DNA of 64,000 bases from Escherichia coli (GCF_011045215.1 NZ_CP049201.1); one strand, 5' to 3'. Positions 21,960 through 46,699 are shown, counted from the first letter of the stretch. The notes: generated from the sequence alone by a model not told the origin. Numbers and translations are program-made.

Positions 21960-22030
21960 AACTGCTATTCTCCGATAATAGTGATTGTGATTAGCGGTGC
22001 GGGTGTGTTGGCGCACATCCGCACCGCGCT
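21954..22030 (+). ncRNA. symR: Probable SymR antisense sRNA overlapping the symE translation start (coordinates approximate)
   Basis: From established knowledge SymR is cis-encoded opposite the symE 5' end; a stem-loop (gcggtgcgg...ccgcaccgc) at ~21994-22030 on the plus strand could be its 3' structure. Ends not determined. Confidence 0.35.
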
Positions 22031-28200: not shown

Positions 28201-28738
28201 CGTTCAGGGCAACCAGCTTTTGCTGCTGCGCTTCGACTTCTGCCTGACTCTGCGCTTTTTCTCGCACCTGCTGTTCAAGCTGTTGTTTTAGCGTCAGCAC
28301 TTCCTGGTGATAGAGGTTTTCACCACGTTCCGGCAACACAAACACCGGCACCGAGAAGTCATAATCTTTAGTGACCAGACGGTAGTACCAGACAGCCAGG
28401 CGAAACCCGAGTCGCAGGCACATCTGGGCATCGTCGAGATCGTTATGATATTCGTGCACCGCCTGGTTACCAATGCGGCGTAATTTGTGGAATACAGAGA
28501 GAATGTTGTCATCAACGAAGGCGATTTTGCCGAGTTCGCGCAGGAGATCGTGTTGATTCTCACAAGGGGGGATGTTGAGTAACAGACCAAGATGTTTCGC
28601 TGTGGCTTCGCCAAACATACGCATTTTAATCAGCGTCGTGTTGGGATCATCCGGGTAGTTATTCTCCGCCGCACAGGCGATGGCATAAGTGAAGTCGTTG
28701 ACGCCCTTCAGGAATTCAAAATTGGATTTATTCATCAT
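25226..28738 (-). CDS. hsdR: Type I R-M restriction endonuclease/helicase subunit HsdR
   Basis: 1170-aa ORF with SF2 helicase motifs (LLAMATGTGKTRTA Walker A, DEAH-like VVDEAHR) preceded by an N-terminal nuclease region. Confidence 0.9.
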   Translation of the reverse strand: MMNKSNFEFLKGVNDFTYAIACAAENNYPDDPNTTLIKMRMFGEATAKHLGLLLNIPPCENQHDLLRELGKIAFVDDNILSVFHKLRRIGNQAVHEYHNDLDDAQMCLRLGFRLAVWYYRLVTKDYDFSVPVFVLPERGENLYHQEVLTLKQQLEQQVREKAQSQAEVEAQQQKLVALNGYIAILEGKQQETEAQTQARLAALEAQLAEKNAELAKQTEQERKAYHKEITDQAIKRTLNLSEEESRFLIDAQLRKAGWQADSKTLRFSKGARPEPGVNKAIAEWPTGKDEMGNQGFADYVLFVGLKPIAVVEAKRKNIDVPAKLNESYRYSKCFDNGFLRETLLEHYSPDEVHEAVPEYETSWQDTSGQQRFKIPFCYSTNGREYRAAMKTKSGIWYRDVRDTRNMSKALPEWHRPEELLEMLGSEPQKQNQWFADNPGMSELGLRYYQEDAVRAVEKAIVKGQQEILLAMATGTGKTRTAIAMMFRLIQSQRFKRILFLVDRRSLGEQALGAFEDTRINGDTFNSIFDIKGLTDKFPEDSTKIHVATVQSLVKRTLQSDEPMPVARYDCIVVDEAHRGYILDKEQTEGELQFRSQLDYVSAYRRILDHFDAVKIALTATPALHTVQIFGEPVYRYTYRTAVIDGFLIDQDPPIQITTRNAQEGVYLSKGEQVERISPQGEVINDTLEDDQDFEVADFNRGLVIPAFNRAVCNELTNYLDPTGSQKTLVFCVTNAHADMVVEELRTAFKKKYPQLEHDAIIKITGDADKDARKVQTMITRFNKERLPNIVVTVDLLTTGVDIPSICNIVFLRKVRSRILYEQMKGRATRLCPDVNKTSFKIFDCVDIYSTLESVDTMRPVVVRPKVELQTLVNEITDSETYKITEADGRSFAEHSHEQLVAKLQRIVGLATFNRDRSETIDKQVRRLDELCQDAAGVNFNGFASRLREKGPHWSAEVFNKLPGFIARLEKLKTDINNLNDAPIFLDIDDEVVSVKSLYGDYDTPQDFLEAFDSLVQRSPNAQPALQAVINRPRDLTRKGLVELQEWFDRQHFEESSLRKAWKETRNEDIAARLIGHIRRAAVGDALKPFEERVDHALTRIKGENDWSSEQLSWLDRLAQALKEKVVLDDDVFKTGNFHRRGGKAMLQRTFDDNLDTLLGKFSDYIWDELA

Positions 28739-28925
28739 TGTTATTAATCCATTGCTGTGTGGGCCTGTCCAAATATTTAAGGCCCATAGCGCCTTATCTT
28801 AGCTTTCTGTACCTTTCCGGGCAATGACCACGGTCACAGCAACTGACTCATTTCTAACGTGTTCGTCTATTTTGGTAGTGTTATAGTAGCCGAAAAACAT
28901 CTACCTGATTCTGCAAGGATGTACT

Positions 28926-29839
28926 ATGACGGTTCCTACCTATGACAAATTTATTGAACCTGTTCTGCGTTATCTGGCGACAAAACCGGAAGGTGCAGCC
29001 GCGCGTGATGTTCATGAGGCTGCCGCGGATGCATTAGGACTGGATGACAGCCAGCGAGCGAAAGTCATTACCAGCGGACAACTTGTTTATAAAAATCGTG
29101 CAGGCTGGGCGCATGACCGTTTAAAACGTGCCGGGTTGTCGCAAAGTTTGTCGCGTGGCAAATGGTGCCTGACTCCTGCGGGTTTTGACTGGGTTGCGTC
29201 TCATCCCCAGCCAATGACGGAGCAGGAGACGAACCATCTGGCCTTCGATTTTGTGAATGTCAAACTTAAGTCACGGCCGGATGCCGTCGATTTAGATCCG
29301 AAAGCCGACTCTCCCGATCATGAAGAACTTGCAAAGAGCAGCCCGGACGATCGGTTAGATCAGGCGCTAAAAGAGCTTCGTGATGCGGTGGCTGATGAGG
29401 TTCTGGAAAACTTATTGCAGGTTTCTCCTTCGCGCTTTGAAGTCATTGTTCTGGATGTTTTGCATCGCCTGGGGTATGGCGGCCACCGTGATGATTTGCA
29501 GCGTGTTGGCGGTACTGGAGATGGTGGCATCGATGGTGTGATATCGCTTGATAAACTTGGCCTGGAGAAAGTTTATGTTCAGGCAAAACGTTGGCGAACA
29601 CTGTAGGCAGGCCAGAATTACAGGCATTTTACGGCGCACTGGCTGGGCAAAAGGCGAAACGTGGGGTGTTTATTACCACTTCTGGATTTACGTCTCAGGC
29701 GCGTGACTTTGCTCAATCCGTCGAGGGTATGGTGTTGGTTGATGGGGAACGCCTGGTGCACTTAATGATCGAAAACGAAGTAGGGGTTTCTTCACGTTTG
29801 TTGAAGGTGCCGAAACTGGATATGGACTATTTTGAGTGA
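28926..29839 (+). pseudogene. mrr: Mrr modification-dependent restriction endonuclease, apparently frameshifted
   Basis: Two ORFs (28926..29606, 226 aa; 29591..29839, 82 aa) in different frames jointly cover a ~304-aa Mrr; the frame changes near 29595-29606 inside the catalytic domain (…VQAKRW then stop, versus ANTVGRPELQAFYGAL… in the other frame). Confidence 0.7.
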
Positions 29840-29845
29840 AATATC

Positions 29846-29876
29846 AGGCCGGATGCGGCTGCGCCTTATCCGGCCC
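29846..29876. repeat. REP element
   Basis: gccggatgcggctgcgccttatccggcc palindrome. Confidence 0.75.
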
Positions 29877-29884
29877 ATAACCCC

Positions 29885-30841
29885 TTACTTCCTCAACCCC
29901 GCAAACGCCGCCCGAATCTCATCCTCCGGCAGCTGAATCCCGATAAACACCATCGTGCTATGCGGTTTTTCATCGCCCCACGGGCGGTCCCAGTCGGCGC
30001 TGTAGAGGCGCTGGACGCCCTGGAACAGCAGGCGGTTAGGTTCGCCGTCAATCCATAGCATCCCTTTGTAACGCAGTAGTTTATCCGCCGATTCCAGCAG
30101 CAGGTTTTCCATCACCCGGGAAACTTCGCTGATATCTACCGGGTAATCCAGTTCCACCACAATCGACGAAATATCGTTTTGTTTATCCGCGATAAAGTGG
30201 AAACGCGGTTTGGTGCTGACGACGTTCTCTTCCAGCATAAAACCGTTGGTGTTGAACAGCAGGCCCAGGTCGATGTCGCCGTGGGTAACTGTGTAGATCG
30301 GTGCACGGGCGTTGATGCGCGCCAGGCGTTCGCGCAGTTTTTCTGCTTCGCCTGCGACGTCGGTTTTGGTCAGCAGAATACGGTCGGCGTAGCCCACCTG
30401 GGACTGGGCGATGGTGAACTGGTTCATCTGCTCATCGGCATGTACCGCATCCACCAGCGCAATCACGCCGTCCAGCAGGTAGCGCTGGCATAAAATCTCA
30501 TGGGAGAAAAAGGTCTGAATAATCGGGCCGGGATCGGCCATGCCGGTGCATTCAATCACCAGACGATCGAACTGAATATTGCCCTTGTCGAGATTATCCA
30601 GCAGGTCGAGTAGTGCGTCTTCCAGCTCGTTGGAGCGCGAACAGCAGATGCAGCCGTTGGTCAGCGTTTTGATCTGCGTGGCGCGGTCGCCAATCAATTG
30701 ATCATCAACGGAGACTTCGCCGAATTCGTTTTCAATCACGGCAATCTTGTAGCCGTGTTGTTCGTTAAGAATATGGCGCAGCAGGGTGGTTTTGCCCGCG
30801 CCTAAAAAACCGGTGAGTAGGGTAACTGCAATCGGGTTCAT
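29885..30841 (-). CDS. yjiA: CobW/P47K-family (COG0523) GTPase
   Basis: ORF 29885..30925 trimmed to MNPIAVTLLTGFLGAGKTTLLRHILNE... (318 aa); Walker A and CxCC metal motif (GCICCS). Confidence 0.85.
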   Translation of the reverse strand: MNPIAVTLLTGFLGAGKTTLLRHILNEQHGYKIAVIENEFGEVSVDDQLIGDRATQIKTLTNGCICCSRSNELEDALLDLLDNLDKGNIQFDRLVIECTGMADPGPIIQTFFSHEILCQRYLLDGVIALVDAVHADEQMNQFTIAQSQVGYADRILLTKTDVAGEAEKLRERLARINARAPIYTVTHGDIDLGLLFNTNGFMLEENVVSTKPRFHFIADKQNDISSIVVELDYPVDISEVSRVMENLLLESADKLLRYKGMLWIDGEPNRLLFQGVQRLYSADWDRPWGDEKPHSTMVFIGIQLPEDEIRAAFAGLRK

Positions 30842-30851
30842 GCTCTCTCCA

Positions 30852-31055
30852 TTAACAACAGCGCATACCGCCTTTACCATCGCCGCCGTAGCGCGCGTTC
30901 TGGCGTTCGCGGAAGAATTCTTCATAGCTCATGTACGGCTTGTCGGGATGGTTGGTCTTCATATGCTCGACGTAGTTGTCGTAGTCTGGAATGCCAATCA
31001 ACATCTTCGCCGCCTGGCCGAGATATTTTTTTGCCTGTCCTAAGTTACCAAACAT
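30852..31055 (-). CDS. yjiX: DUF466-family small protein
   Basis: ORF 30852..31181 trimmed to [32 protein letters not shown]... (67 aa); the longer ORF would read through REP sequence. Confidence 0.8.
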
Positions 31056-31103: not shown

Positions 31104-31182
<79 letters not shown>

Positions 31183-31185
31183 CGG

Positions 31186-33336
31186 TTAGTGGTGCGAAGA
31201 GATCTTCACGCCGCCTTCCGGGATTGGAACGTACGGTGTTTCTTTGTCAGTACGTTTGTCGCTGTTACGCACCGCAAGCCAGGTTTTGAAACCGTAGAAG
31301 ATGATGCTGTACACCACAATCAGGAACAGAATACTCAGGCCTGCGTTGGTGTAGTTGTTCACAACGATGTGGTTCATGTTGGCAATCTGCTGCGCCGTCA
31401 GGTCAGTACCGTTAGAAATCTTCTCTTTGTACTGGCTTGCCATGTAGAAGAAGCCTTCCATCTGCGGGTTGGTGCTGAACAGTTTCAGACCCAGCGCCCA
31501 GGTGGTGCAGATAAGCAGCCATACAGCCGGAACAACAGTTACCCAGATGTATTGGGTGCGCTTCATCTTAATCAGCACAACGGTGCCCAGTACCAGCGCT
31601 ACGGCTGCCAGCATCTGGTTGGAGATACCGAACAGCGGCCACAGGCTCTTAACGCCGCCCAGCGGATCGACCACGCCCTGATACAGCAGGTAGCCCCACA
31701 GACCCACACAGCCCGCAGTACCGATGATACCGGCAACCAGAGAGTCGGTTTTTTTCAGGAACGGGATGAAGTTACCCAGCAGGTCTTGCAGCATAAAGCG
31801 GCCAGAACGGGTACCCGCATCCAGCGCGGTCAGGATGAACAGGGCTTCGAACAGAATACCGAAGTGATACCAGAAGCCCATGTCAGCCATCGGCAGCACT
31901 TTGTGGAACACATGAGCGATACCTACCGCCAGCGTCGGCGCACCACCTGCACGGTTCAGGACAGAAGGCTCACCAATGTCTTTCGCGGTTTGCAGGATCT
32001 GCTCTGGCGAAATCACGAAGCCCCAGGAGCTGACGGTCGCCGCCGCGTGTGCGGTAACGTCTTTCAGCTGCGCCATGATGATCGGCGCGTTCTCGCCACC
32101 CATTTCATGCAGGTTAGGCATGGTGATGCCAAGGCCAGCAGGCGGGGTGTTCATCGCGAAGTAAAGACCCGGTTCGATGATGGACGCTGCAACCAGCGCC
32201 ATAATCGCCACGAAGGACTCCATCAGCATTGCGCCGTAGCCGATGAAACGCGCGTCGGTTTCGTTAGCCAGCAGTTTCGGCGTCGTACCGGAAGAGATCA
32301 GCGCGTGGAAGCCAGATACCGCACCACAGGCGATGGTGATGAACAGGAACGGGAACAGAGCGCCTTTCCACAGCGGGCCAGTACCGTCAATGTACTGGGT
32401 CATCGCAGGCATTTTCAGTTCCGGGTTCAGCACCACGATACCCAGCGCCAGGCCGACGATAACGCCGATTTTCAGGAAGGTTGCCAGATAGTCGCGCGGT
32501 GCGAGGATCAGCCACACCGGCAGCAGTGCGGAAACAAACGCATAGCCAATCAGCGCGAAGGTAATGGTGGTGTCTTTAAAGGTCAGTGCCGGACCCCAGT
32601 ACGGATCGTGAGCAATCACGCCACCGAAGTAGATAGAGGCAACCAGCAGCACGATACCAATGACAGAGACTTCACCTACACGCCCCGGACGAATAAAGCG
32701 CATATAGATACCCATAAACAGCGCAATCGGTACGGTTGAGCAAACGGTGAAGACACCCCACGGACTTTCGGCCAGGGCTTTAACCACAATCAGCGCCAGG
32801 ACGGCAAGGATGATGATCATGATTAAGAAACAGCCAAACAGCGCGATAGTCCCCGGTACTGGTCCCATCTCTTCTTTGATCATCTCACCGAGAGATGCGC
32901 CGTTACGGCGAGAGGAGATAAACAGCACCATAAAGTCCTGTACCGCACCGGCCAGTACTACCCCCGCCAGCAGCCACAGCGTGCCAGGTAGGTAGCCCAT
33001 CTGCGCGGCGAGAACCGGACCAACCAGCGGACCAGCACCGGCGATAGCGGCGAAGTGGTGACCAAACAACACGTAACGGTTGGTCGGAACGTAGTTCAGA
33101 CCGTCGTTGTTAATAACCGCAGGCGTCGCGCGCGTGGGGTCGAGTTTCATCACCTTCTGGGCGATATACAAACTGTAGTAGCGATACGCCACCAGATACA
33201 CCGACACCGAGGCGACCACGATCCACAGGGCGCTGACGTGCTCCCCCCGACGTAATGCAACTACCGCGAGGCAGAATGCACCGATGATTCCGAGAATCAC
33301 CCAGGGTATGTGCTTGAATAGTTTTTTCGTATCCAT
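31186..33336 (-). CDS. btsT: CstA-family pyruvate/H+ symporter
   Basis: ORF 31186..33351 trimmed to [19 protein letters not shown]... (716 aa); polytopic membrane protein; synteny (yjiY). Confidence 0.85.
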
Positions 33337-33728
33337 AGTAAAACCTGGCATTTTACTCGTCGTCTTTTGGCTTACAGGTGCGGCAGCTGCGTTCGTTCAC
33401 CCCTGTCACTTACTGTTGTAAGCTCCCGGGGATTCACTCACTTGCTGCCTTCCTGCAAATCAAAATCCATAGAGTAATTTGTTAATCATAGGCCGAAGCC
33501 GTTCTAGGTTTGCGTTGCGTTTGAGGAGGTAAATTGACCGCTATCCTGCAGTGATGTTGCCAGAGATACGCGCGCGTAAAGTAAGGTAAATAACTGAGTG
33601 GTTATTTTAGGGATGTAAGCGGTCAGGAATGGCGGTGAGCGGTTGGGCAAGAATTATTCATCGGGTGGATATGTGATTGAGATCACAATAAAAATGCCCC
33701 TTCGACGAATGCGTGAAGGGGCTGGAGC

Positions 33729-34241
33729 TTAAATCGCAGCTTCCATTTCCAGCATCACCGGATGGAAACGGCGTTTAAAGTAGATAAGTCCGTGACCTTC
33801 TGCACTGAGGATGATGTTTTTAATCTCCACCAGATAGACCAGATGTGTGCCAATTGCCTGCACATCGCGGATCTCACCTTCAAGACTGGCCAGCGAACCT
33901 TTCAGCACCGGCTGCGCCAGCGGACCTTTTTGCCAGCATGAGAGGCTAAAACGCTCTTCCATCGCCATGCCTGTCATGCCCGCGAAGTGGCGCGCCATCA
34001 GTTCCTGCTCATGATTGAGGACGTTGACGCACAACTTGCCGTTGCCCTGAAAAACCGGGTTCATCGCACTGTTGGCGTTAATGCACACCATCAGCGACGG
34101 TGGTGTATCCGTGACCGAGCAGACGGCCGTTGCCGTAATCCCGCATTGTCCGGCGTCGCCCTCGGTGGTGATAATATTTACCGCTGCCGACAGGCTGGCC
34201 ATCGCGTCACGAAAGCGCAGGCGTTGTTCATCTAATTGCAT
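33729..34241 (-). CDS. hpaC: 4-hydroxyphenylacetate 3-monooxygenase, flavin reductase component
   Basis: 170-aa ORF, flavin reductase-like; sits immediately downstream of hpaB. Confidence 0.85.
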   Translation of the reverse strand: MQLDEQRLRFRDAMASLSAAVNIITTEGDAGQCGITATAVCSVTDTPPSLMVCINANSAMNPVFQGNGKLCVNVLNHEQELMARHFAGMTGMAMEERFSLSCWQKGPLAQPVLKGSLASLEGEIRDVQAIGTHLVYLVEIKNIILSAEGHGLIYFKRRFHPVMLEMEAAI

Positions 34242-34258
34242 CTTAACCTCCTGCTGCG

Positions 34259-35821
34259 TTATTTCAGCAGCTTATCCAGCATGTTGATATCGTCGTTGTT
34301 GTGCAGGTGCGGCACAGTCCAGCCGTTCTGGTCGTATTCCGACAGGCAGCGATCAACCATCGCCATCATCTTGTCCATATTGCCGGAGCTTTGTGCCTGG
34401 CGCAGACATTGCAGGCGAATCTCATCCTGGCTACCGGAGTAGTTGATTTCATACAGCTCGTGACGACCACCAAATTCGCTGCCAATGGCGTCCCACATCA
34501 GTTTGAGGATCTTGATGCGCTGGACGTGATCCATACCGTTCGAACCGCGCACATACTTCGCCAGATACTGGTCGATCTGCGGATTGTTCAGGTCACGGGC
34601 ACTGGAAGGGAGGTAGATCAGGCCACTGGTAACGTTGCGTTCGATAATGTTTTTGATCTTCGCGTAGGCCATTGGTGCCAGTACGCGATAGGTTTGCAGT
34701 GCGGCATGATCCGGTAAATAAGCCCCGTTGACCCACGGCGTCGCTTCTGAACACATCGAGTCACTCAATGCCCAGAAGGTGTTGCACCACGCCACCACTT
34801 CACCGAGATCGGCCTGCACACCACGGAACTCCAGGGTGCCGGTACATTCGAGTGATTTTTTCAGCAGTGCCGTGATGAAGTCGAGTTTCACTGCCAGGCG
34901 CACACAGGCTTGCAGCGGATACATACGGGCAAAACCGCCTTCCATCGTCCAGCGACGGCAGCGATCGAAATCGCGGTAGATCAGCACGTTTTCCCACGGG
35001 ATCAGTACGTTATCCATCACCAGGATCGCATCGTTCTCATCGAAGCGGCTGGAGAGCGGGTAGTCGTACGGCGAGCCGGTAGCACCCGCGACCATCTCAT
35101 AAGAGGCGCGGGAGATTAATTTCACGCCATCGGCATCCATTGGCGCAACGAACATCAGTGCGAAGTCCGGGTTTTCGCCCATCACTTGTGCCGAGCCGAA
35201 GCCAATCATGTTGTAGTGAGTCAGCGCCGAGTTGGTGGCAACCACTTTCGCACCACTGACGATAATCCCGGCGTCAGTCTCTTTTTCCAGCTTGATGTAA
35301 ACGTCTTTCACTTTATCGGTCGGCAAATGACGATCGATCGGTGGGTTAACAATCGCGTGGTTAAAGTAGAGGCCAGTTTCCTGAATACGGGTGTACCAGT
35401 TACGGGCGTTCTGCTCGAACTGACCGTAAAAGCCCGGATTCGCGCCCAGTGCGCAACCGAAAGCGGCTTTGTAGTCTGGGGTGCGACCCATCCAGCCATA
35501 GCTCAGGCGTGACCACTCAGCGATGGCGTCGCGTTGCTGGCGCAGGTCGTCGGCACTTTTCGCCACGCGGAAGAATTTATGGGTATAGCCGCCGCTGCCG
35601 GTGTCGGTGTTCCAGCACAGAGAGTCCTGCATTTCCGGTTTGTGTAGCGCGTCGTACAGTTGGGCAACAGACGCTGCCGCATTACGAAATGCCGGATGAG
35701 TAGTGACGTCTTTCACTCGCTCGCCATAGATATAGATCGCGCGACCATCCTGCAGGCTTTTCAGATACTCTTCCCCGGTGAACGGACGTTGGGTACTGGC
35801 GCGGAAATCTTCTGGTTTCAT
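34259..35821 (-). CDS. hpaB: 4-hydroxyphenylacetate 3-monooxygenase, oxygenase component
   Basis: 520-aa ORF matching my memory of HpaB. Confidence 0.9.
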   Translation of the reverse strand: MKPEDFRASTQRPFTGEEYLKSLQDGRAIYIYGERVKDVTTHPAFRNAAASVAQLYDALHKPEMQDSLCWNTDTGSGGYTHKFFRVAKSADDLRQQRDAIAEWSRLSYGWMGRTPDYKAAFGCALGANPGFYGQFEQNARNWYTRIQETGLYFNHAIVNPPIDRHLPTDKVKDVYIKLEKETDAGIIVSGAKVVATNSALTHYNMIGFGSAQVMGENPDFALMFVAPMDADGVKLISRASYEMVAGATGSPYDYPLSSRFDENDAILVMDNVLIPWENVLIYRDFDRCRRWTMEGGFARMYPLQACVRLAVKLDFITALLKKSLECTGTLEFRGVQADLGEVVAWCNTFWALSDSMCSEATPWVNGAYLPDHAALQTYRVLAPMAYAKIKNIIERNVTSGLIYLPSSARDLNNPQIDQYLAKYVRGSNGMDHVQRIKILKLMWDAIGSEFGGRHELYEINYSGSQDEIRLQCLRQAQSSGNMDKMMAMVDRCLSEYDQNGWTVPHLHNNDDINMLDKLLK

Positions 35822-36071
35822 GTCGACCTCTACAGTATTAATCGGAATACGATTGTTAATTTTGTGTGTTGTTTTTGTTATTCAATTGAAGCTTGCAGGG
35901 GCGATTACGGGAAGAGACTTTTGGGACAATGGCTGGTACTTTTCAGGTCGGGTACGGTTTTGTGATCGAGGTCGCTTTTAGCTATTTTTGACGTTACTAA
36001 ATCCCCTTGCTCCAGGCGGAGAAAGAGGAATAGCAGGTGATGCCTGGTTTCCCGTTAAGGCTAAGGGATTT

Positions 36072-36962
36072 TCACGTCACAGGTACTTTTTTGGCACGGT
36101 AAGCACTGGGCGAGCAACCGACTAAACGATTAAAAAAGCGCGCAAAATAAGCCGGATCCTTAAAACCGAGTTGCCAGGCAATATTGTTCACGGCGTTATC
36201 AGAAAACAGCAGCAGCCGCTTGGCTTCTCGCAGCTGCCTGTCGAAAATCAACCGTTTTGGCGGACGGTTGGCAAAGCGGCGGCAGATGTCGGTGAGGCGT
36301 GATTCGGTGATATGCAGTTCGTTAGCGTAATCCGGTACTGTCCAGTGCTGATGAAAATGGCTTTCAATCAGCATATGAAAACGCTGGAACAGTTTTAATT
36401 CTCCGCGCATTCCGCTGGCGGCATGATCGTCAAGTTTTGCGTTACGCAGCAGTAGGGTGAACACTGCCTGTGCCAGGAGCGTCAGGGTGTGTTCCCGACC
36501 AGGCAGTTGTTCTACCGATTCCCGCTCTATCAGTTGCCAATAGTGTTCCAGCGCCGCCAGTTCGTCGGGTTTATCTGCCAGTGACAGGCAAATCCCCGGC
36601 AGGCCGAAGGTTTCCCGAGTGCCCGGATAAAGAACTTCCAGCAGGGGCCAGATCAGATCTTCCCGTACCGTCAATACATGACCGTCGGCGTCAGACTCCG
36701 TAATAAACGCATGAGGTACTGACGGCGGCGTCAGGACAAACAGGGGCGCTTCCACCGAGTAGCGATGATTGTCAAGCTGTAGCTCAATCTGTCCGCTATT
36801 GAGGAAATGCATCTGAAAGTACTGTTCGTGGCGATGTGGCAGCATATGGCGGCCAAAAAATGCCGCCATGCGGGCGAAGGACTGATAATGCACATCGTCC
36901 GTGCCCAGGCTTTCATCGTACTCTTTGCTGATATCAATATTGGCAATCTGACGGTCACACAT
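36072..36962 (-). CDS. hpaA: AraC/XylS-family activator of hpaBC
   Basis: 296-aa ORF with C-terminal AraC-type HTH. Confidence 0.85.
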   Translation of the reverse strand: MCDRQIANIDISKEYDESLGTDDVHYQSFARMAAFFGRHMLPHRHEQYFQMHFLNSGQIELQLDNHRYSVEAPLFVLTPPSVPHAFITESDADGHVLTVREDLIWPLLEVLYPGTRETFGLPGICLSLADKPDELAALEHYWQLIERESVEQLPGREHTLTLLAQAVFTLLLRNAKLDDHAASGMRGELKLFQRFHMLIESHFHQHWTVPDYANELHITESRLTDICRRFANRPPKRLIFDRQLREAKRLLLFSDNAVNNIAWQLGFKDPAYFARFFNRLVGCSPSAYRAKKVPVT

Positions 36963-36971
36963 CGTCGTTCC

Positions 36972-38348
36972 TTACGGGGTCGCTCGCGGACGGGAGGACT
37001 GCATTGGAATTGCCCAGATAATCCCCGCACCAATCACCAGCAGCGCGGCAACAAACCACAATCCACTGTTAAAGCTGCCGGTCAGATCTTTCAACCAGCC
37101 GATCATAAACGGACTTAATGCTGAACCAATGTTGCCAGTGGCGTTGATCACCGCAATACCGATCGCTCGTGCCCGCAGGCTGATGGACTGATCCGGTGTT
37201 GTCCAGAAAATCGCCATTGCGCTGAATGATCCGGTCGAAGCCATAATGATCCCCAGCATCTGGATCATGTTGTGATCAGTTGCCGAAGCCAGTAACCAAC
37301 CAGCGGCAGCGAACAAATAAGGAAGGGCGGTGTGATGCCTTCGTTCCTGGCGGCGATCTGAGTGACGGCTCCAGTAAATCATCCCGAGAATGGTACAAAT
37401 CTGCGGTACGGCGGCCAGCAGGCCGATGGTGATATTACTGCTGCCTTGATTAAAGCTTTGTAGGATCTGCGGTGTCCAGATGCTGATCGCACTAAGTGTG
37501 TTGGTCAGGCAGAAATACGCCAGGGTATACATCATCACCACCGGAGTGAAGATCTCCCGCCACATGCTGCGTTGTTGCATGGCATGGTGGCTGATGGCTC
37601 CCTCTGGCTGAACCAGCGTCAGACGATCGTTATCCATCATCTCTTGCAGGCATTTTTTGTCTTCTTTCGTCAGCCACTTAGCTTTGTCCGGTGAGTCATC
37701 AAGCCAGAACCACACCATGACGCCGAGTAATACCGACGGGAAGCCTTCCAGCAAAAACAGCCACTGCCAGCCTTTTAATGCCATTACGCCATCCAGCGAC
37801 AAAATGTAGCCGGAAACGATCGATCCCAACGCTGTCGTTACCGGCATTGCAACCATAAACAAGGCGTTGGCACGGGCGCGGAAGTAGGCCGGAAACCAGA
37901 AGGTTAAATACAGCAGAATGCCAGGCAGAAAGCCGGCTTCGGTAATGCCAACCAGTATACGCAGTACGTACAAGCTGGTGGGGCCAGTGGCAAACATGGT
38001 GGCAGTAGAGGCGATGCCCCAAAGCACCATGATGGTGGCGATCCAGCGCCGCGCACCGACAATACTCAGCATAATGTTGCTGGGAATGCCGAAGATGACA
38101 TAAGCGGCATAGAACAGGGTGGTAGCGAGGCCAAACATGGTGGCGCTCAGACCGAGGTCGCGTCCCATCGTGAGTCCGGCAAAGCCGATGTTGATGCGAT
38201 CAAGGAACGAGAAGATAAACAGCACGAACAGAAAGACGATCAGGCGGCGAAATAGCTTCTTAATAACCGCCTGTTGTCCGGCAGTCAGCGCTTTATGCTG
38301 ATTCGCCGGATCGATACTCTCCGGTATGGCAGGTGAGGTGTCGCTCAT
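36972..38348 (-). CDS. hpaX: 4-hydroxyphenylacetate MFS permease
   Basis: 458-aa ORF, 12-TM MFS. Confidence 0.85.
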   Translation of the reverse strand: MSDTSPAIPESIDPANQHKALTAGQQAVIKKLFRRLIVFLFVLFIFSFLDRINIGFAGLTMGRDLGLSATMFGLATTLFYAAYVIFGIPSNIMLSIVGARRWIATIMVLWGIASTATMFATGPTSLYVLRILVGITEAGFLPGILLYLTFWFPAYFRARANALFMVAMPVTTALGSIVSGYILSLDGVMALKGWQWLFLLEGFPSVLLGVMVWFWLDDSPDKAKWLTKEDKKCLQEMMDNDRLTLVQPEGAISHHAMQQRSMWREIFTPVVMMYTLAYFCLTNTLSAISIWTPQILQSFNQGSSNITIGLLAAVPQICTILGMIYWSRHSDRRQERRHHTALPYLFAAAGWLLASATDHNMIQMLGIIMASTGSFSAMAIFWTTPDQSISLRARAIGIAVINATGNIGSALSPFMIGWLKDLTGSFNSGLWFVAALLVIGAGIIWAIPMQSSRPRATP

Positions 38349-38395
38349 TTTTCTTCCTCTAATGGGATTTTTGTAGGGTACGACAAGGTTTATGG

Positions 38396-38523
<128 letters not shown>

Positions 38524-39312
38524 TTAATACACGCCGGGCTTAATCGCTGTAGCCTGCGCGCTAAACCGTGCTGCCAGCGCTTCGGCGGCGCGGGCGAGCA
38601 GGGTGGTGTCAACGCCGACGGCGACAAACAGCGCGCCCAGTTCCAGATAGCGTTTTGCCAGTTGCTCATTGGCGATCAGGATCCCTGGCGCTTTACCCGC
38701 TTCGCGGATCTGCACGATCGCCTGCTCAATGGCGGCCTGTACTTCCGGGTGCTGCGGATTACCGGCATAACCCATATCGGCGCTCAGATCCGCCGGGCCG
38801 ATAAACACGCCGTCGACGCCTTCCACGTCCAGAATCTGCGGTAAGTTCTTCATTGCCTCACGCGTTTCGATCTGCACCAGCACGCACATTTGATCGTTGG
38901 CTTTTTGCAGGTAATCAGGAATACGATTCCAGCGCGAGGCTCGGGCCAGCGCACTGCCCACACCGCGAATACCGGCGGGGGGATAACGGGTGGCGCGTAC
39001 CGCTTCACGGGCTTCGTCAGCGTTTTGTACCATCGGCACCAGCAAGGTTTGTGTGCCGACGTCCAGCAGTTGTTTGATTTGCACCGGATCGTTCCACGAC
39101 GGACGTACTACCGGCTGGCTGGGGTAGGGCGCAATCGCCTGTAGCTGGGTGAGCACGGTTTGCACGTTATTCGGCGCGTGTTCACCGTCGATCAACAACC
39201 AGTCGAATCCTGCTCCGGCCAGTAACTCTGCGCTGTAACTGCTACTCAGCCCCAGCCATAATCCGATCTGCGGGCGGCCTGCTTTCAGCGCCGCTTTAAA
39301 ACTGTTTTCCAT
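38524..39312 (-). CDS. hpaI: 2,4-dihydroxyhept-2-ene-1,7-dioate aldolase
   Basis: ORF 38524..39453 trimmed to [22 protein letters not shown]... (262 aa); the longer ORF would begin inside REP/hpaH sequence. Confidence 0.85.
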
Positions 39313-39322
39313 CGTTCTCTCC

Positions 39323-40126
39323 TTAAACAAAGCGGCAGCTAATGGAACCCATGTTGCCGTAATCGACGTGGAAGGTGTCGCCCTTACGCGCCGGAACCGG
39401 GCGGGTGAACGAACCGCCGAGAATGATTTGCCCGGCTTCCAGTTGTACGTCATACGGTGCGAGTTTGTTCGCCAGCCAGGCCACGCCGTTTGCCGGGTGA
39501 TTCAGCACGCCAGCGGCGACGCCGGTTTCTTCAATCACGCCATTGCGATACATCAGGGCGGAGATCCAACGTAGATCCAACTCATCGGGCTTAATGGGAC
39601 GACCACCGAGGATCACCCCGGCATTGGCGGCGTTATCAGAAATGGTGTCGAACACTTTACGCGGGCGCTGGGTTTCCGGATCGATGTTGTGGCAGCGAGC
39701 GTCGATCAGCTCCAGCGCCGGGATCACATAGTCCGTGGCGTTGTAAACGTCGAACAGCGTGCAGTTTGGTCCACGCAGCGGTTTTGCCAGCACGAAAGCC
39801 AGCTCCACTTCAATGCGCGGCACGATAAAGCGATCGGTTGGGATATCGCTGCCATCGTGGAAGAACATGTCATCCAGCAGGGCACCGTAATCCGGCTCGC
39901 TGATTTGTGAGCTGGCCTGCATCGCTTTCGAGGTCAGGCCGATTTTGTGGCCTTTCAGCGTACGGCCTTCGGCAATTTTCAGGCGAACCCATTCGCGCTG
40001 TACGGCGTAGGCGTCTTCGATGGTGATCTCCGGGTAATCCAGCGAGATCGCGCGGATCTGTTCGCGCTGTTTTTCTGCCTGATCCAGACGCTGGGCGATC
40101 AGGGTGTGGGTGTGTTTATCGAACAT
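39323..40126 (-). CDS. hpaH: 2-oxo-hept-4-ene-1,7-dioate hydratase
   Basis: ORF 39323..40144 trimmed to [19 protein letters not shown]... (267 aa). Confidence 0.85.
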
Positions 40127-40144
40127 AGCGATATCCTGTGGCAT

Positions 40145-40180
40145 TGCCGGATGCGGCTGCTCCTTATCATCCGGCCTGGA
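40145..40180. repeat. REP-like palindrome
   Basis: gccggatgcggctgctccttatcatccggcc. Confidence 0.6.
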
Positions 40181-40193
40181 AGCTGGTGCAAAT

Positions 40194-40574
40194 TTATTTA
40201 AACAACGCGTGTACGTTGTTCTGTTTGAAATTCAACGTCGGGTGCAGCTCTGCAATCTCAAATGAAAGCGCCAGGTAACGGCTCTCCATCAGTGAGGCGA
40301 AGTGCGTTTTAATCAGATCAAACAGCATTTCGCCCACTTCCTGACGGCTTTCCAGACTGCGTCCGCTGCCGATTTTTAGCGTCATATGCACAAAGGCGTA
40401 ATCGTGCTTGCCATCAGCCATTTGCCAGGTATCGATCCAGTGCGCCCGGCTACGTATTCCCCCAAGCGGAAAAATCCCCGTTGCCGCCAGTGCAGTGTTA
40501 ACACTGGCAAACAGCTCAGGTAAGCGGGCTTCTTCACGAATATTTTCAGTACATTCCACGATAAAGTGCGGCAT
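40194..40574 (-). CDS. hpaF: 5-carboxymethyl-2-hydroxymuconate isomerase
   Basis: 126-aa ORF, tautomerase-like, N-terminal MPHF. Confidence 0.85.
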
Positions 40575-40583
40575 AAAACGTCC

Positions 40584-41435
40584 TTACGCGGGCAGCGGGA
40601 AAACAGCGTTAACCTGACCGGTGCCAGAGCTTGGGAACAGCTCGGTAATAAACTCCACCTTGCCGTCGTATTTATCCCAGCCGAGCATCCCCAGCAGCAT
40701 CACCGTGTCGTGCATATTGCCTTCGCCGTAGCAGTAGTCGGCGTACTCCGGCAGCATATTGCAAAACTCTTTGAACTGGCCTTCGCGCCACAGCTTCACC
40801 ACACGCTCGTCCATCTGGCGGTCGAACTCGCGGGTGTAGCTGTTCATCCCTTCTTCCGCACGCTGATCGTCAATAAAGCGGTGCGATAACGAACCGCTGG
40901 CAAGGACCGCCACGGTGCCGTCGTACTGTTCGATCGCTTTCAGAATCGCTTCGCCCAGCTTGCGGCTGTCGGCAAAATCGTGAACCGTGCAGAAAGCCGA
41001 AATGGAGACCACTTTGAAGTGCTTGTCTTCATTCATGTAGCGCATCGGTACCAGCGTGCCGTATTCCAGTTTCAGGCTGGGAATATTGTGCGCTTTTGCC
41101 CGCACGCCGAGCTTTAAGGCTTCATCGGCAATAAGCTGCCCCAACTCCGGGTTGCCCTCGTAGTTGTAGGTCATGTCACGAATAAAATGCGGCAGCTCGT
41201 TGCTGGTGTAGACGCCTTCAAAATGGTCTGCACAGTTGATGTGATAAGCACTGTTGACCAGCCAGTGGGTATCGAAAACGATAATGGTATCGACGCCCAT
41301 TTCCCGGCAACGCTTGCTGATCTCTTTATGCCCGTCGATCGCGCCCTGGCGACAACCGTGGTTTTTCCCAGGCAGCTCAGAGAGATACATCGACGGTACG
41401 TGCGTGATCTTGGCGGCTAACGCTAACTTACCCAT
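40584..41435 (-). CDS. hpaD: 3,4-dihydroxyphenylacetate (homoprotocatechuate) 2,3-dioxygenase
   Basis: 283-aa ORF, extradiol dioxygenase. Confidence 0.85.
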   Translation of the reverse strand: MGKLALAAKITHVPSMYLSELPGKNHGCRQGAIDGHKEISKRCREMGVDTIIVFDTHWLVNSAYHINCADHFEGVYTSNELPHFIRDMTYNYEGNPELGQLIADEALKLGVRAKAHNIPSLKLEYGTLVPMRYMNEDKHFKVVSISAFCTVHDFADSRKLGEAILKAIEQYDGTVAVLASGSLSHRFIDDQRAEEGMNSYTREFDRQMDERVVKLWREGQFKEFCNMLPEYADYCYGEGNMHDTVMLLGMLGWDKYDGKVEFITELFPSSGTGQVNAVFPLPA

Positions 41436-41436
41436 A

Positions 41437-42903
41437 TCAGACTCCCCATTTCGGAATTGGATGGTCGCCCATGGAAATGCAGACGTTCTTCATTTCCGCG
41501 AACACTTCGAAGCTGTACTCACCGCCTTCACGCCCGGTGCCGGAGGCTTTTACGCCGCCAAACGGCTGGCGCAGGTCACGCACGTTCTGGGTGTTGACGA
41601 ACACCATGCCTGCTTCGATGCCACGCGCCAGGCGTAGCACTTTGCTGACATCCTGCGTCCAGATGTACGATGCGAGGCCGTACTCCACGTCGTTTGCCAG
41701 GCGTAAGCCTTCGGCTTCATCTTTAAACGGCAGCAGGCAGGCGACCGGCCCGAAAATCTCTTCCTGGGCGACACGCATACGGTTATCAACGTCTGCCAGC
41801 ACCGTTGGGCGCAGGAAGTTGCCGCCTTTCAGGTGCGCAGGCAGGTCAGACGGTTTATCCGGGCCGCCCGCCAGCAGGGTGGCGCCTTCTTCAATGCCGA
41901 GACGGATATAGCCGGAGACTTTTTCCCAGTGCTGCTGGCTGATAAGCGCCCCAACCTGGGTATTCGGATCGGTCGGATCGCCCACGCGCAGACGGTTGGC
42001 GCGTTCGGCAAAGCGTTTAACGAATTCCGGGTAGATGCTTTGCTGAATAAAGATGCGCGAACCGGCGGTGCAGCGCTCGCCGTTGATCGAGAAGATGGTG
42101 AACAGGGCGGCGTCCAGCGCGCGTTCAATATCGGCATCTTCAAAAATCAGCACTGGCGATTTTCCGCCCAGTTCCATGGAGTATTTTTTCAGCCCGGCGT
42201 TTTTCATGATGTTGCGCCCGGTGGCGGTACCGCCGGTGAACGACACGGCACGCACGTCATGATGACGGACCAGCGCATCCCCTGCGGTTGCGCCGTAGCC
42301 CTGTACCACGTTCAGCACGCCCGCCGGAATACCGGCTTCCAGCGCCAGCTCACCCAGGCGGTCAGCGGTCAGCGGGGAGAGTTCTGACATCTTCAGCACC
42401 GCGGTATTGCCCAGCGCAAGACACGGCGCGACCTTCCATGTGGCGGTCATAAACGGCACGTTCCACGGCGATACCAGCGCACAAACGCCTACCGGTTGCA
42501 CCAGCGTGTAGTTGAGCATCTTGTCGTCAACCGGATAGGTCTTGCCGTTCATCTGCTGGCAGACTTCCGCGAAAAATTCAAAGTTGTGAGAAGCGCGTGG
42601 GATCAACACATTTTTGGTCTGATGGATCGGCAGGCCCGTGTCCGCGGTTTCCATCGCGGCGATCTCAGGCACGTTCTGGTCGATCAGATCGCCCAGACGG
42701 CGCATCAGGCGCGCACGCTCTTTCATCGGCAGATTGGCCCATTTCGGGAACGCCTCTTTCGCTGCCGCTACCGCCTGATTGATCTCCGCTTCACCGCCAG
42801 AGGCCACATCCGCCAGCACTTCACCCGTTGCCGGATTGGTGGTCTGGAAGTAGTCGTTACCTGCAACATTTTTGCCGTTGATCCAATGATTTACTTTTTT
42901 CAT
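41437..42903 (-). CDS. hpaE: 5-carboxymethyl-2-hydroxymuconate semialdehyde dehydrogenase
   Basis: 488-aa ORF, aldehyde dehydrogenase family. Confidence 0.9.
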   Translation of the reverse strand: MKKVNHWINGKNVAGNDYFQTTNPATGEVLADVASGGEAEINQAVAAAKEAFPKWANLPMKERARLMRRLGDLIDQNVPEIAAMETADTGLPIHQTKNVLIPRASHNFEFFAEVCQQMNGKTYPVDDKMLNYTLVQPVGVCALVSPWNVPFMTATWKVAPCLALGNTAVLKMSELSPLTADRLGELALEAGIPAGVLNVVQGYGATAGDALVRHHDVRAVSFTGGTATGRNIMKNAGLKKYSMELGGKSPVLIFEDADIERALDAALFTIFSINGERCTAGSRIFIQQSIYPEFVKRFAERANRLRVGDPTDPNTQVGALISQQHWEKVSGYIRLGIEEGATLLAGGPDKPSDLPAHLKGGNFLRPTVLADVDNRMRVAQEEIFGPVACLLPFKDEAEGLRLANDVEYGLASYIWTQDVSKVLRLARGIEAGMVFVNTQNVRDLRQPFGGVKASGTGREGGEYSFEVFAEMKNVCISMGDHPIPKWGV

Positions 42904-44189
42904 TTCGCTGTTTCCTCACTCACAATTCGGTTCACCAGGCGGCCCACGCCTTCTACTTCCACCACTACTTCATCGCCAGGCACCACGTCAGATAAGCCTT
43001 TTGGTGTGCCGGTGGCGATCATGTCGCCCGGATTCAGGGTCATAAATTCGCTTAAGTAGGCGATCAGGAAGGGCACGCTGAAGATCAGATCGGCGGTGGT
43101 GCCTTGCTGGCGTAACTCGCCGTTGACGAAGGTGCGAAGGGTCAGATTATGCGGGTCCGGGATCGCCTCTTTCGGCACGATGGTTGAAAGCATCGGCGTC
43201 AGTCCGTCGCGGCTTTTGACCCGCAGGTTAGGGCGGTAGTAGTTTTCCAGATAGTCGCGAATGGCGTAGTCGTTACACACGGTGTAGCCCGCGACATAAT
43301 CCATGGCATCGGCTTCGCTGACGTTACGAGCCTGCTTGCCAATAACTACCACCAGCTCCGCTTCGTAGTGCATGTATTCAATATTGTTCGGGCGCACGGA
43401 GGTCTGGTTATCGCCAGTGAGGGTATTCGGTGCTTTCAGGAACACCAGCGGCTCTTCCGGTGGCTTAAATTCCAGTTCGCTGGCGTGGTCGGCGTAGTTC
43501 AGGCCGAGGGCAAACAGCGTACCGTGCGGGTGTGGCTGCGTTGGGAAGCTCTTGCGCGTGGTCACTTCACGTTCGTCCACTACCGGATTCTCCAGCGGCG
43601 GGAAACCTTCTGCGAGAACACGCACGCGATCGCCTGGCTGTATTTCCACGCGCGCCTGTGGCGTGCCGAGCAGAATGGCATCGCCTGGATTCAGCGTGGC
43701 AAATTCGCTCAGGGCGCTCAGCAGCTGTGCGGCGTTACGTTGTAAATCGGCGGTATTCCAGTGATCGGCAGGACGCCCGTTGATCTCGGTATAGATAGTC
43801 AGATTATCGACATTGCTGAGAGCCACGGTTTCGCCAATGGGGCAGAATCCATCACGACATTTTGCTTTGATTGCCGGACGGTAAAAGCTCTCTTCCGGCA
43901 GGCTGACGTCGTTAGCCAGCGCATATCCGGCGATGTACTCTGCCGCATCTTCTTCACGTACTTTCGTCGCCGTTTTTCCCACAATCAGCGCAACTGTCGC
44001 ACCGCTCAGTACCTTTTCACCCTGTGGAAAGGGAATCGGTTCACCGCAACCAATCACCGTATTGCGCGGTTTAATAAACCAGACCGCAGTTTTAGGCGGG
44101 GCTTTGTAGGGAGATTGCTGGAACGCTTCCTGCCAGGCATCAAGTTGGCTGCGATGGTTCAACGCTACGGCGAAGATAGTGCCTTTCAT
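42900..44189 (-). CDS. hpaG: Bifunctional HHDD isomerase / OPET decarboxylase
   Basis: ORF 42900..44195 begins at GTG; I trimmed to the ATG of MKGTIFAVALNH... (429 aa); two FAH-fold repeats. Confidence 0.85.
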   Translation of the reverse strand: MKGTIFAVALNHRSQLDAWQEAFQQSPYKAPPKTAVWFIKPRNTVIGCGEPIPFPQGEKVLSGATVALIVGKTATKVREEDAAEYIAGYALANDVSLPEESFYRPAIKAKCRDGFCPIGETVALSNVDNLTIYTEINGRPADHWNTADLQRNAAQLLSALSEFATLNPGDAILLGTPQARVEIQPGDRVRVLAEGFPPLENPVVDEREVTTRKSFPTQPHPHGTLFALGLNYADHASELEFKPPEEPLVFLKAPNTLTGDNQTSVRPNNIEYMHYEAELVVVIGKQARNVSEADAMDYVAGYTVCNDYAIRDYLENYYRPNLRVKSRDGLTPMLSTIVPKEAIPDPHNLTLRTFVNGELRQQGTTADLIFSVPFLIAYLSEFMTLNPGDMIATGTPKGLSDVVPGDEVVVEVEGVGRLVNRIVSEETAK

Positions 44190-44460
44190 TACCACTCCTC
44201 GGATTCGATCATCTTAATCATTAATATGTTAATGATTACTTTTATTCCCGATTGCGTAGTTTGGCAAAAGTAAGTGATGTAAATGTGATCTAATTAACAA
44301 ACTATTTACATTAAAAGATAATAAAATATTAAATATCAGTGTGTTAATAAAACATCCTCAATTTTGATAAAATGAAGAATTGCGGGGGCAGCTCAGTCCC
44401 GGTAACGTGATGATTAATTGTTTCTATATTAATGATTTTGAATTTTTCAGGGGAAAGATA

Positions 44461-44907
44461 ATGCACGACTCACTAACCATTGCGTTGCTCCAGGCGCGAG
44501 AAGCGGCGATGAGTTATTTTCGCCCAATCGTTAAACGGCATAATTTGACTGAGCAACAGTGGCGCATCGTGCGTATTCTGGCGGAAAGCCCATCAATGGA
44601 TTTTCACGATCTGGCGTATCGCGCCTGCATTTTGCGCCCAAGCCTGACCGGGATCCTCACGCGGATGGAACGCGACGGTTTAGTGTTGCGATTAAAGCCG
44701 ATCAATGATCAGCGGAAGCTCTATATCTCGCTGACCAAAGAGGGGCAGGCGCTGTATAACCGCGCTCAGACACAGATTGAAGAAGCCTATCGGCAGATTG
44801 AAGCTCAGTTTACTGCCGAGAAAATGCAACAGTTAACCCATCTGTTAGAGGAATTTATTGCTCTGGGCAATTCCCGACAAGAAGACATCCCGGGCGATAA
44901 TGAATAA
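44461..44907 (+). CDS. hpaR: MarR-family repressor of the hpa meta-cleavage operon
   Basis: ORF 44380..44907 trimmed to MHDSLTIALLQAREAAMSYFRP... (148 aa); divergent from hpaG. Confidence 0.85.
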   Translation: MHDSLTIALLQAREAAMSYFRPIVKRHNLTEQQWRIVRILAESPSMDFHDLAYRACILRPSLTGILTRMERDGLVLRLKPINDQRKLYISLTKEGQALYNRAQTQIEEAYRQIEAQFTAEKMQQLTHLLEEFIALGNSRQEDIPGDNE

Positions 44908-45025
44908 CTTTTTAGTATCTGATAACCAGCGCCTGGTTTTTCCATGGATGGCGGGTTACACCTTTTCATAAAGTTTTTGCTTTCCAGGCCGAAAATCTTG
45001 CATCGGTCCACAGGAAAGAGAAACC

Positions 45026-46699
45026 ATGTTAAAACGTATCAAGATCGTGACCAGCTTACTGCTGGTTTTGGCCGTTTTTGGCCTTTTACAACTGACATCA
45101 GGCGGTCTGTTCTTTAATGCCTTAAAGAATGACAAAGAAAATTTCACTGTTTTACAAACCATTCGCCAGCAGCAATCTACGCTGAATGGCAGCTGGGTCG
45201 CGTTGTTGCAGACGCGTAACACCCTCAACCGCGCGGGTATCCGCTACATGATGGATCAGAATAATATTGGTAGCGGTTCAACCGTTGCTGAGCTGATGCA
45301 GAGTGCCAGTATTTCGCTGAAACAGGCGGAAAAAAACTGGGCAGATTACGAAGCGTTGCCGCGTGACCCGCGTCAGAGCACCGCCGCAGCGGCAGAGATC
45401 AAACGTAATTACGATATTTATCACAATGCGCTGGCGGAGCTGATCCAACTGTTAGGTGCAGGCAAAATCAACGAGTTCTTTGATCAGCCGACCCAGGGAT
45501 ATCAGGACGGTTTCGAGAAGCAGTATGTGGCTTACATGGAGCAAAACGATCGGCTCTATGATATCGCCGTCAGCGATAACAATGCCTCCTACAGCCAGGC
45601 GATGTGGATTCTGGTGGGCGTGATGATCGTCGTACTGGCGGTCATCTTCGCCGTCTGGTTCGGTATTAAAGCCTCGCTGGTAGCGCCAATGAATCGCCTG
45701 ATTGACAGCATTCGTCATATTGCAGGCGGCGATCTGGTGAAACCGATTGAGGTGGATGGCTCTAATGAGATGGGGCAACTGGCAGAGAGTTTGCGCCATA
45801 TGCAGGGAGAGCTGATGCGTACCGTCGGTGATGTGCGCAACGGGGCCAATGCCATCTATAGCGGTGCCAGCGAAATCGCTACCGGCAATAACGATCTCTC
45901 TTCGCGCACCGAGCAACAGGCCGCTTCGCTGGAAGAGACGGCAGCCAGCATGGAGCAACTGACCGCAACGGTGAAACAGAACGCCGAGAATGCGCGCCAG
46001 GCCAGCCACCTGGCGTTAAGTGCTTCTGAAACGGCGCAACGCGGCGGCAAAGTGGTAGATAACGTGGTGCAGACTATGCGTGATATCTCCACCAGTTCGC
46101 AGAAAATCGCCGATATTATCAGCGTAATTGACGGCATTGCCTTCCAGACCAATATTCTGGCTTTGAACGCGGCGGTTGAAGCAGCGCGTGCGGGTGAGCA
46201 AGGACGTGGTTTTGCGGTGGTTGCGGGAGAAGTGCGTAATCTGGCCCAGCGTAGCGCCCAGGCGGCTCGTGAAATTAAAAGCCTGATTGAAGACTCGGTG
46301 GGGAAAGTGGATGTTGGCTCTACGCTGGTCGAAAGCGCCGGGGAAACAATGGCGGAGATTGTCAGCGCCGTGACCCGCGTGACGGACATTATGGGCGAAA
46401 TTGCTTCTGCTTCTGATGAGCAGAGCCGTGGTATCGATCAGGTTGGCTTAGCGGTTGCTGAGATGGACCGGGTAACTCAACAGAACGCCGCGCTGGTGGA
46501 AGAATCTGCCGCTGCCGCCGCCGCGCTGGAAGAGCAGGCCAGTCGCCTGACCGAAGCTGTGGCAGTGTTCCGGATTCAGCAACAGCAGCAACAGCAGCAA
46601 CAGCAGCGTGAAACATCGGCTGTGGTAAAAACCGTGACGCCAGCTACGCCGCGTAAAATGGCAGTGGCAGATAGCGGGGAGAACTGGGAAACGTTTTAA
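45026..46699 (+). CDS. tsr: Methyl-accepting chemotaxis protein I (serine chemoreceptor)
   Basis: 557-aa ORF with periplasmic domain, HAMP, methylation helices and C-terminal NWETF pentapeptide; contains a 10-Gln tract. Confidence 0.9.
46577..46606 (+). repeat. CAG/CAA trinucleotide repeat encoding Q10 in the Tsr C-terminal linker
   Basis: cagcaacagcagcaacagcagcaacagcag read directly. Confidence 0.9.

Follow-up and report, generated by a model that had tools for sequence, protein, structure and literature searches.

A canonical hpa cluster for 4-hydroxyphenylacetate catabolism at the btsT-tsr junction of Escherichia coli

The stretch of DNA analyzed here, referred to as the window, comprises 64,000 nucleotides of Escherichia coli (GCF_011045215.1, NZ_CP049201.1), with positions counted from its first letter. 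Between btsT and tsr, the segment 33729-44907 is filled by 11 long reading frames in the open reading frame (ORF) list, of which only hpaR lies on the plus strand and the other ten lie on the minus strand (Table 1). They correspond to the hpa genes for catabolism of 4-hydroxyphenylacetate (4-HPA), and all 11 Hpa products exceed the curated NCBIfam equivalog cut-offs by which protein families were assigned. The main comparators were E. coli W (cluster at NC_017635.1 4841054-4852274; GenBank Z37980), E. coli B REL606 (NC_012967.1 4569647-4580773) and ETEC6335, the best megablast match, each through its RefSeq-annotated orthologs, and all genome counts refer to a collection of 5426 complete E. 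coli genomes. Megablast against this collection matches the whole 11.2 kb end to end, at up to 98.6% identity, to annotated hpa regions. Judged by these sequence comparisons, the region is the canonical, already known chromosomal hpa cluster of E. coli, the initial descriptions of which came from strains W, C and B.

The same 11 genes occur in the same order and orientation between btsT and tsr in ETEC6335, W and REL606, so the annotated loci bear out the statement of a first-pass annotation of this DNA that the arrangement is that of W and B. Each frame of the window agrees in length, start and stop with its RefSeq orthologs in the three strains, and this comparison reveals no internal stop in any of the 11. 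Differences from the three comparators amount to 0-5 amino acids per protein, with the exception of HpaF against W. HpaC and HpaR are identical in the window, W, B and ETEC6335; HpaD and HpaH are identical to the W and B proteins and HpaX to the B protein; HpaE and HpaG each differ from W at one residue. The exact HpaI protein of the window is present on at least 1000 contigs, and HpaB is almost the same protein as the crystallised E. coli HpaB of PDB 6QYH and 6EB0. In a four-way alignment of the btsT-tsr interval, no indel separates the window from ETEC6335, one 52-bp repetitive extragenic palindromic (REP) unit separates it from REL606, and the indels relative to W are confined to two REP regions. 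Alignment to the W cluster had been put forward as the check on the first-pass annotation, and since indels fall only in REP regions, hidden disruptions are absent. The description of hpaR, hpaGEDFHI, hpaX, hpaA and hpaBC as all present and apparently intact therefore holds at the level of frames, families and alignments.

The likeness to W extends to the btsT and tsr flanks, to 10 of 12 spacers that are equal in length, to coding genes that, hpaF excepted, are 97-99% identical in nucleotides, and to HpaR palindromes that are identical. W differs in carrying 43 extra bases between hpaH and hpaF, which include a second, inverted REP, in having one base fewer in the bacterial interspersed mosaic element (BIME) between hpaX and hpaI, and in having penicillin G acylase further upstream. 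E. coli B (REL606 and BL21) shares the arrangement and the hpaF type of the window, but REL606 has one REP unit (52 bp) fewer and encodes Cys at HpaB position 379, where the window encodes Arg. The hpc genes of E. coli C (HpcD, PDB 1OTG) represent the same pathway and enzyme family, although 1OTG is a W-type isomerase allele and HpaF of the window is of the B type. In Yersinia pseudotuberculosis HpaR likewise represses the meta operon at TTAA-N4-TTAA palindromes, but that species is without hpaA, has hpaG split into hpaG1 and hpaG2, and carries its genes as a single operon (PMC7180172).

The regulatory DNA of the cluster is conserved to a similar degree. An inverted-repeat search of the divergent control region between hpaG and hpaR identifies two related palindromes, of which the first (44215-44238, TAATCATTAA-N4-TTAATGATTA) adjoins hpaG and the second (44410-44436, ATGATTAAT-N9-ATTAATGAT) adjoins hpaR. 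Both palindromes and the ~125 bp nearest hpaG are unchanged in W, B and ETEC6335. Published HpaR sites are TTAA-N4-TTAA palindromes like those of E. coli W (PMC7180172), and the TTAA-N4-TTAA core seen here agrees with that description. For these reasons, namely the palindromes themselves, their identity to W and the published sites, we regard the two as candidate HpaR operators. The hpaBC genes are described as being under HpaA control (PMC7180172), and the hpaA-hpaB spacer is exactly as long as its W and B counterparts, with the ~160 bp nearest hpaB identical to W. Just downstream of hpaC, the minus-strand RNA of 33670-33735 folds at -22.8 kcal/mol (z = -5.9; 0 of 200 shuffles as stable), and the predicted terminator contained in it is unchanged in W, B and ETEC6335. 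A consensus promoter and terminator scan of 33300-45100 returned about as many matches as chance would give (7 where 8.1 are expected and 11 where 12.9 are expected) and was not used; it missed the hpaC terminator because of the 11-nt loop of the hairpin. Rfam at gathering thresholds gives no match inside the cluster.

How would these genes operate together? Work on W, C and B has established the mechanism (PMC7201708, PMC7180172), which is carried over to the window by orthology. HpaX would import 4-HPA or 3-hydroxyphenylacetate (3-HPA), and the AraC-family protein HpaA would sense the substrate and activate hpaBC. HpaC would then reduce flavin with NADH, and HpaB, using reduced flavin and O2, would convert 4-HPA or 3-HPA to 3,4-dihydroxyphenylacetate (homoprotocatechuate). 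This product is predicted to relieve repression by the MarR-family protein HpaR at the palindromic hpaG/hpaR operators, allowing hpaGEDFHI to be expressed. In the meta-cleavage branch HpaD would open the ring, HpaE oxidise the semialdehyde, HpaF isomerise, and HpaG decarboxylate and isomerise, after which HpaH would hydrate the intermediate and cleavage by HpaI would yield pyruvate and succinic semialdehyde. 4-HPA supports growth of strains B, C and W but not of K-12 (PMC7201708, PMC7180172). Because genes, spacing, palindromes, promoter-proximal DNA and terminator are intact and colinear with those of strains that grow on 4-HPA, growth on 4-HPA is predicted for the present strain. HpaB Arg379 is required for use of 3-HPA, which R379C abolishes in REL606 (PMC7201708), and growth on 3-HPA is predicted because the window encodes Arg at this position. 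Thus, we consider it very probable that the strain carries a canonical, intact hpa cluster and would grow on both compounds.

Several points weigh against this reading. Full mineralisation needs a succinic semialdehyde dehydrogenase, which is encoded elsewhere. The middle of the hpaG-hpaR spacer (44313-44393) carries ~12 differences from W. HpaB has the substitutions E28A and R346C, at residues that are both invariant in nine other enterobacterial HpaB proteins (from E. coli, Salmonella, Enterobacter and Klebsiella), and HpaA has D65N, at a position where all five other HpaA sequences compared have Asp. Proteins that match HpaB and HpaA of the window exactly occur only on one 5.41-Mb source genome (QIF15172, QIF15173) and in the SRR11014969 read-set assembly. 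Moreover, HpaB position 379 shows that a residue outside the active site can matter, as an Arg-to-Cys change there shifts the substrate range (PMC7201708). The word intact therefore needs a caveat for the private changes E28A, R346C and D65N. The closest hpaBA allele, at 99.3%, belongs to PapM-32-1, an isolate from a Gambian baboon, which shares with the window the HpaA change N196H.

An alternative hypothesis is that the frames are complete and the upper pathway is nevertheless altered, with E28A, R346C and D65N weakening or re-tuning the hydroxylase, its substrate range or the response to inducer. Growth on 4-HPA, on 3-HPA or on both would then be reduced or changed, with a normal meta-cleavage operon. 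The invariance of the three residues among the sequences compared and the restriction of the exact proteins to one genome argue for this view, as does the retention of R346 in the distant homolog 4OO2. However, R346 is Tyr in Thermus HpaB and hence no universal catalytic residue, none of E28, R346 and D65 is named as substrate-binding or catalytic in the literature found, and D-to-N is a conservative change. The hpaB and hpaA codon changes shared with none of W, B, ETEC6335 and PapM-32-1 comprise three non-synonymous against four synonymous ones, a ratio that could point toward altered function but consists of counts too small for inference or a statistical claim. Missense variants on tip branches are common and usually mildly deleterious at most. 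We retain this hypothesis because the R379C change of REL606 offers a precedent for altered substrate range (PMC7201708), and we judge it very unlikely; a functional cluster supporting growth on 4-HPA and 3-HPA is the preferred reading.

Table 1 Features of the hpa cluster and its neighbors, in window coordinates
Feature	Coordinates	Strand	Description	Family match or position
btsT (yjiY)	31186-33336	-	left neighbor of cluster	
Predicted intrinsic terminator	33687-33722	-	GC-rich hairpin followed by U-run	just downstream of hpaC
hpaC	33729-34241	-	NADH:flavin reductase component of 4-HPA 3-monooxygenase, 170 aa	NF012030, 385.6 bits (cut-off 315)
hpaB	34259-35821	-	oxygenase component of 4-HPA 3-monooxygenase, 520 aa	TIGR02310, 1104 bits (cut-off 885)
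hpaA-hpaB intergenic region	35822-36071	-	predicted HpaA-dependent hpaBC promoter, role from literature, 250 bp	
hpaA	36072-36962	-	AraC-family activator of hpaBC, 296 aa	TIGR02297, 386.6 bits (cut-off 274.65)
hpaX	36972-38348	-	major facilitator superfamily (MFS) 4-HPA permease, 458 aa	TIGR02332, 893.9 bits (cut-off 615.4)
BIME	38396-38523		three REP units, two direct and one inverted; cores 38397+, 38449+, 38499-	between hpaX and hpaI
hpaI	38524-39312	-	4-hydroxy-2-oxoheptanedioate aldolase, 262 aa	TIGR02311, 433.9 bits (cut-off 368.8)
hpaH	39323-40126	-	2-oxo-hept-4-ene-1,7-dioate hydratase, 267 aa	TIGR02312, 464.7 bits (cut-off 351.5)
Single REP unit	40145-40180	+	core 40149+	between hpaH and hpaF
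hpaF	40194-40574	-	5-carboxymethyl-2-hydroxymuconate isomerase, 126 aa, B-type allele	NF011605, 264.6 bits (cut-off 215)
hpaD	40584-41435	-	3,4-dihydroxyphenylacetate 2,3-dioxygenase, 283 aa	TIGR02298, 549.9 bits (cut-off 315.95)
hpaE	41437-42903	-	5-carboxymethyl-2-hydroxymuconate semialdehyde dehydrogenase, 488 aa	TIGR02299, 740 bits (cut-off 638.35)
hpaG	42900-44189	-	bifunctional isomerase/decarboxylase, 429 aa	NF011750, 979.2 bits (cut-off 811)
hpaG/hpaR divergent control region	44190-44460		two related palindromes, candidate HpaR operators, 271 bp	
hpaR	44461-44907	+	MarR-family repressor of hpaGEDFHI and itself, 148 aa	TIGR02337, 201.1 bits (cut-off 121.2)
tsr	45026-46699	+	right neighbor of cluster	

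The REP pattern matches the window eight times, where chance alone would give 0.19 matches. An exact match to the REP consensus lies at 38446-38479, with related cores at 38397, 38499 (inverted) and 40149, and all REPs of the cluster are intergenic. In the four-way alignment, length differences within the cluster are limited to the REP regions, and the unit that REL606 lacks corresponds to the 52 bp at 38396-38447 of the hpaX-hpaI BIME. The first-pass annotation described the cluster as both flanked and punctuated by such elements; its coordinates and the punctuation are correct, but the flanking is not. No REP core is present in the btsT-hpaC spacer (33337-33728) or the hpaR-tsr spacer (44908-45025), so the cluster is punctuated rather than flanked, and the nearest outside copies lie beyond btsT at 31108 and 31156. 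A different repeat occupies part of the left spacer. Directly upstream of the btsT start, positions 33352-33478 hold a ~127-bp element resembling the enterobacterial repetitive intergenic consensus or intergenic repeat unit (ERIC/IRU), with a ~85% match to an approximate ERIC consensus. Because this element is present in W, REL606 and ETEC6335 and absent at the K-12 site, it appears to travel with the hpa-positive haplotype.

The arrangement in K-12 is different. In MG1655 btsT is adjacent to tsr, as the first-pass annotation had stated, and the cluster is absent. The edges of the exchanged DNA were placed by a blastn comparison of the K-12 locus with the window, together with local alignment, and they show that 11,322 bp of the window (33643-44964) are replaced by 133 bp in K-12 (NC_000913.3 4591463-4591595). 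The segment is bounded by shared btsT-upstream and tsr-promoter sequences. A CRP-like TGTGA-N6-TCACA motif lies at ~33672-33687, just inside the left edge, and since K-12 has a counterpart of it, the actual left boundary may lie close to 33691. On the other side, just right of the indel and within K-12-shared DNA, the sequence TAAAGTTT-N11-GCCGAAAA can be read as a sigma-28-type promoter of tsr.

At least 80% of the hpa cluster is present in one piece in 2019 of the 5426 genomes, and hpaF, or any match to the hpaB-hpaA segment, in 2071. A K-12-type filler occupies the junction in 2757 genomes, with 90 to 100% identity among strains. Therefore, ~37-38% of complete E. coli genomes carry the cluster and ~51% have the K-12-type empty junction, and subtraction (5426 - 2071 - 2757) leaves ~600 genomes with neither hpaF nor filler. 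ET245, one member of this last class, has lost btsT through an IS1-linked deletion; HB101, considered as another example, proved to be hpa-positive and was rejected. The junction states exclude one another almost cleanly, with few partial clusters, and for this reason the cluster is best described as a common accessory segment. This tempers the claim that it marks the strain as non-K-12. The claim is true, but the marker is weak, because presence of so common a cluster says little beyond a non-K-12-like haplotype at btsT-tsr. As a separate observation, a W-type hpaF, presumably with the hpa cluster, lies on NZ_AP023206.1, a 404-kb record of E. coli TUM18781 classed as a plasmid, and plasmid-borne matches account for 2 of the 2071 hpaF matches.

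A further question is how the cluster came to lie at this junction. A degenerate-pattern scan of species-representative genomes finds hpaR loci in Pseudocitrobacter, Klebsiella, Raoultella, Citrobacter and others. The three Pseudocitrobacter loci have the order hpaX-I-H-F-D-E-G / hpaR with tsr downstream, as in the window, but ~3.4 kb of other genes lie between their hpaR and tsr. HpaD, HpaE and HpaH are 99% identical in amino acids to those of the window (HpaE 99.4-99.8%), and hpaD reaches 98.0% in nucleotides. In contrast, amino acid identity is 84-87% for HpaR, 91% for HpaX and 82-84% for Tsr, tsr is 77-79% identical in nucleotides, and the Pseudocitrobacter hpaF is of the W type. The hpa cluster thus has the look of an inter-genus mosaic in which the central genes are far closer to Pseudocitrobacter than hpaR and tsr are. 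Recent transfer was considered as the source of this similarity, and the idea is tempered by the identity of the whole cluster, which is 85-91% and not near 100%.

The hpaF gene departs most clearly from the rest of the cluster. Its nucleotide identity is 99.5% to REL606 (one amino acid difference) and 80.6% to W (19 of 126 amino acids differ), and the flanking hpaH and hpaD are 97-98% identical to W. The window/B type (at least 95% identity) is present in 1084 of the complete E. coli genomes and the other type (80-90%) in 987, with none between. Divergence between the two classes is ~20% for nucleotides and ~15% for amino acids, and the rest of the cluster varies by ~2%. HpaF of the window differs from PDB 1OTG of E. 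coli C at ~18 of 125 aligned residues, a W-type distance. The catalytic N-terminal proline is retained, and the window-type isomerase must work in vivo because B strains grow on 4-HPA (PMC7201708). W-type hpaF and Pseudocitrobacter hpaF share 93-98% identity, comparable to the 92-98% of hpaD and hpaH, and window-type hpaF is ~78-82% identical to every sampled sequence. This uniform distance suggests import of a gene-sized piece (40137-40600) from an unsampled donor. A look-up of both HpaF alleles in 90%-identity clusters revealed no donor, the clusters being heterogeneous, and no discussion of an hpaF dimorphism was found in the papers searched. A fuller version of this idea holds that such a replacement has been kept as a balanced dimorphism, with isomerases that possibly differ in function, within a wider inter-genus exchange of meta-cleavage genes; we offer it as an improbable scenario.

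One hypothesis for the locus as a whole is that the cluster is a horizontally acquired island between btsT and tsr and not an ancestral segment lost by K-12-type strains. The 133-bp filler of K-12 is without counterpart in hpa-positive strains or in Pseudocitrobacter, which argues for replacement and not for clean deletion. The contrast between the central genes (hpaD and hpaH at 92-98% in nucleotides, HpaE at 99.4-99.8% in amino acids) and tsr (77-79% in nucleotides) indicates exchange between genera, and hpaF itself is a gene-sized foreign patch. However, the borders show no integrase, transposase, tRNA or terminal direct repeat in the ORF list and Rfam searches, and the GC content of the cluster (0.53-0.58) is similar to that of neighboring btsT. 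With no mobility genes, no att-like repeats and no GC anomaly, a mobile island ranks low. Moreover, both junction states are old within E. coli, homology to Pseudocitrobacter upstream of tsr begins 12 bp further upstream in the window than in K-12, and published opinion favors loss in K-12 (PMC7201708). The linkage of hpaR to tsr in Pseudocitrobacter as well favors the view that the two have long been neighbors and that K-12-type strains lost or replaced the cluster, and on balance we consider acquisition as an island unlikely. The cluster represents one state of a presence/absence polymorphism that has long existed between btsT and tsr, and it is not a mobile element.

Other observations concern the neighboring DNA. 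At 46570-46600, ten consecutive glutamines precede NWETF in the C-terminal linker of the window's Tsr, a protein of 557 amino acids; the run comprises four glutamines in K-12 and B (551 amino acids) and seven in W (554 amino acids), a trinucleotide-repeat length polymorphism, and the exact window protein is present on 129 contigs. In the left flank, 25977-31055 holds K-12-like hsdR and mrr at 97.2% identity to MG1655, and the restriction genes of ETEC6335 there differ. Elsewhere in the window Rfam identifies SymR (21954-22030), a tRNA (59471-59554) and a REP-derived naRNA4 (59694-59776).

Beyond annotation the cluster matters little, as it is an ordinary accessory trait. The hpaF dimorphism, the Pseudocitrobacter mosaic and the three-state btsT-tsr junction may be of interest to those who study how accessory metabolic genes of E. 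coli recombine. HpaBC, which comes from this cluster, is in wide use as a biocatalyst that hydroxylates phenols in the ortho position. In the gut, 4-HPA and 3-HPA arise when tyrosine and polyphenols are broken down, and their use is common to many commensal and pathogenic E. coli.

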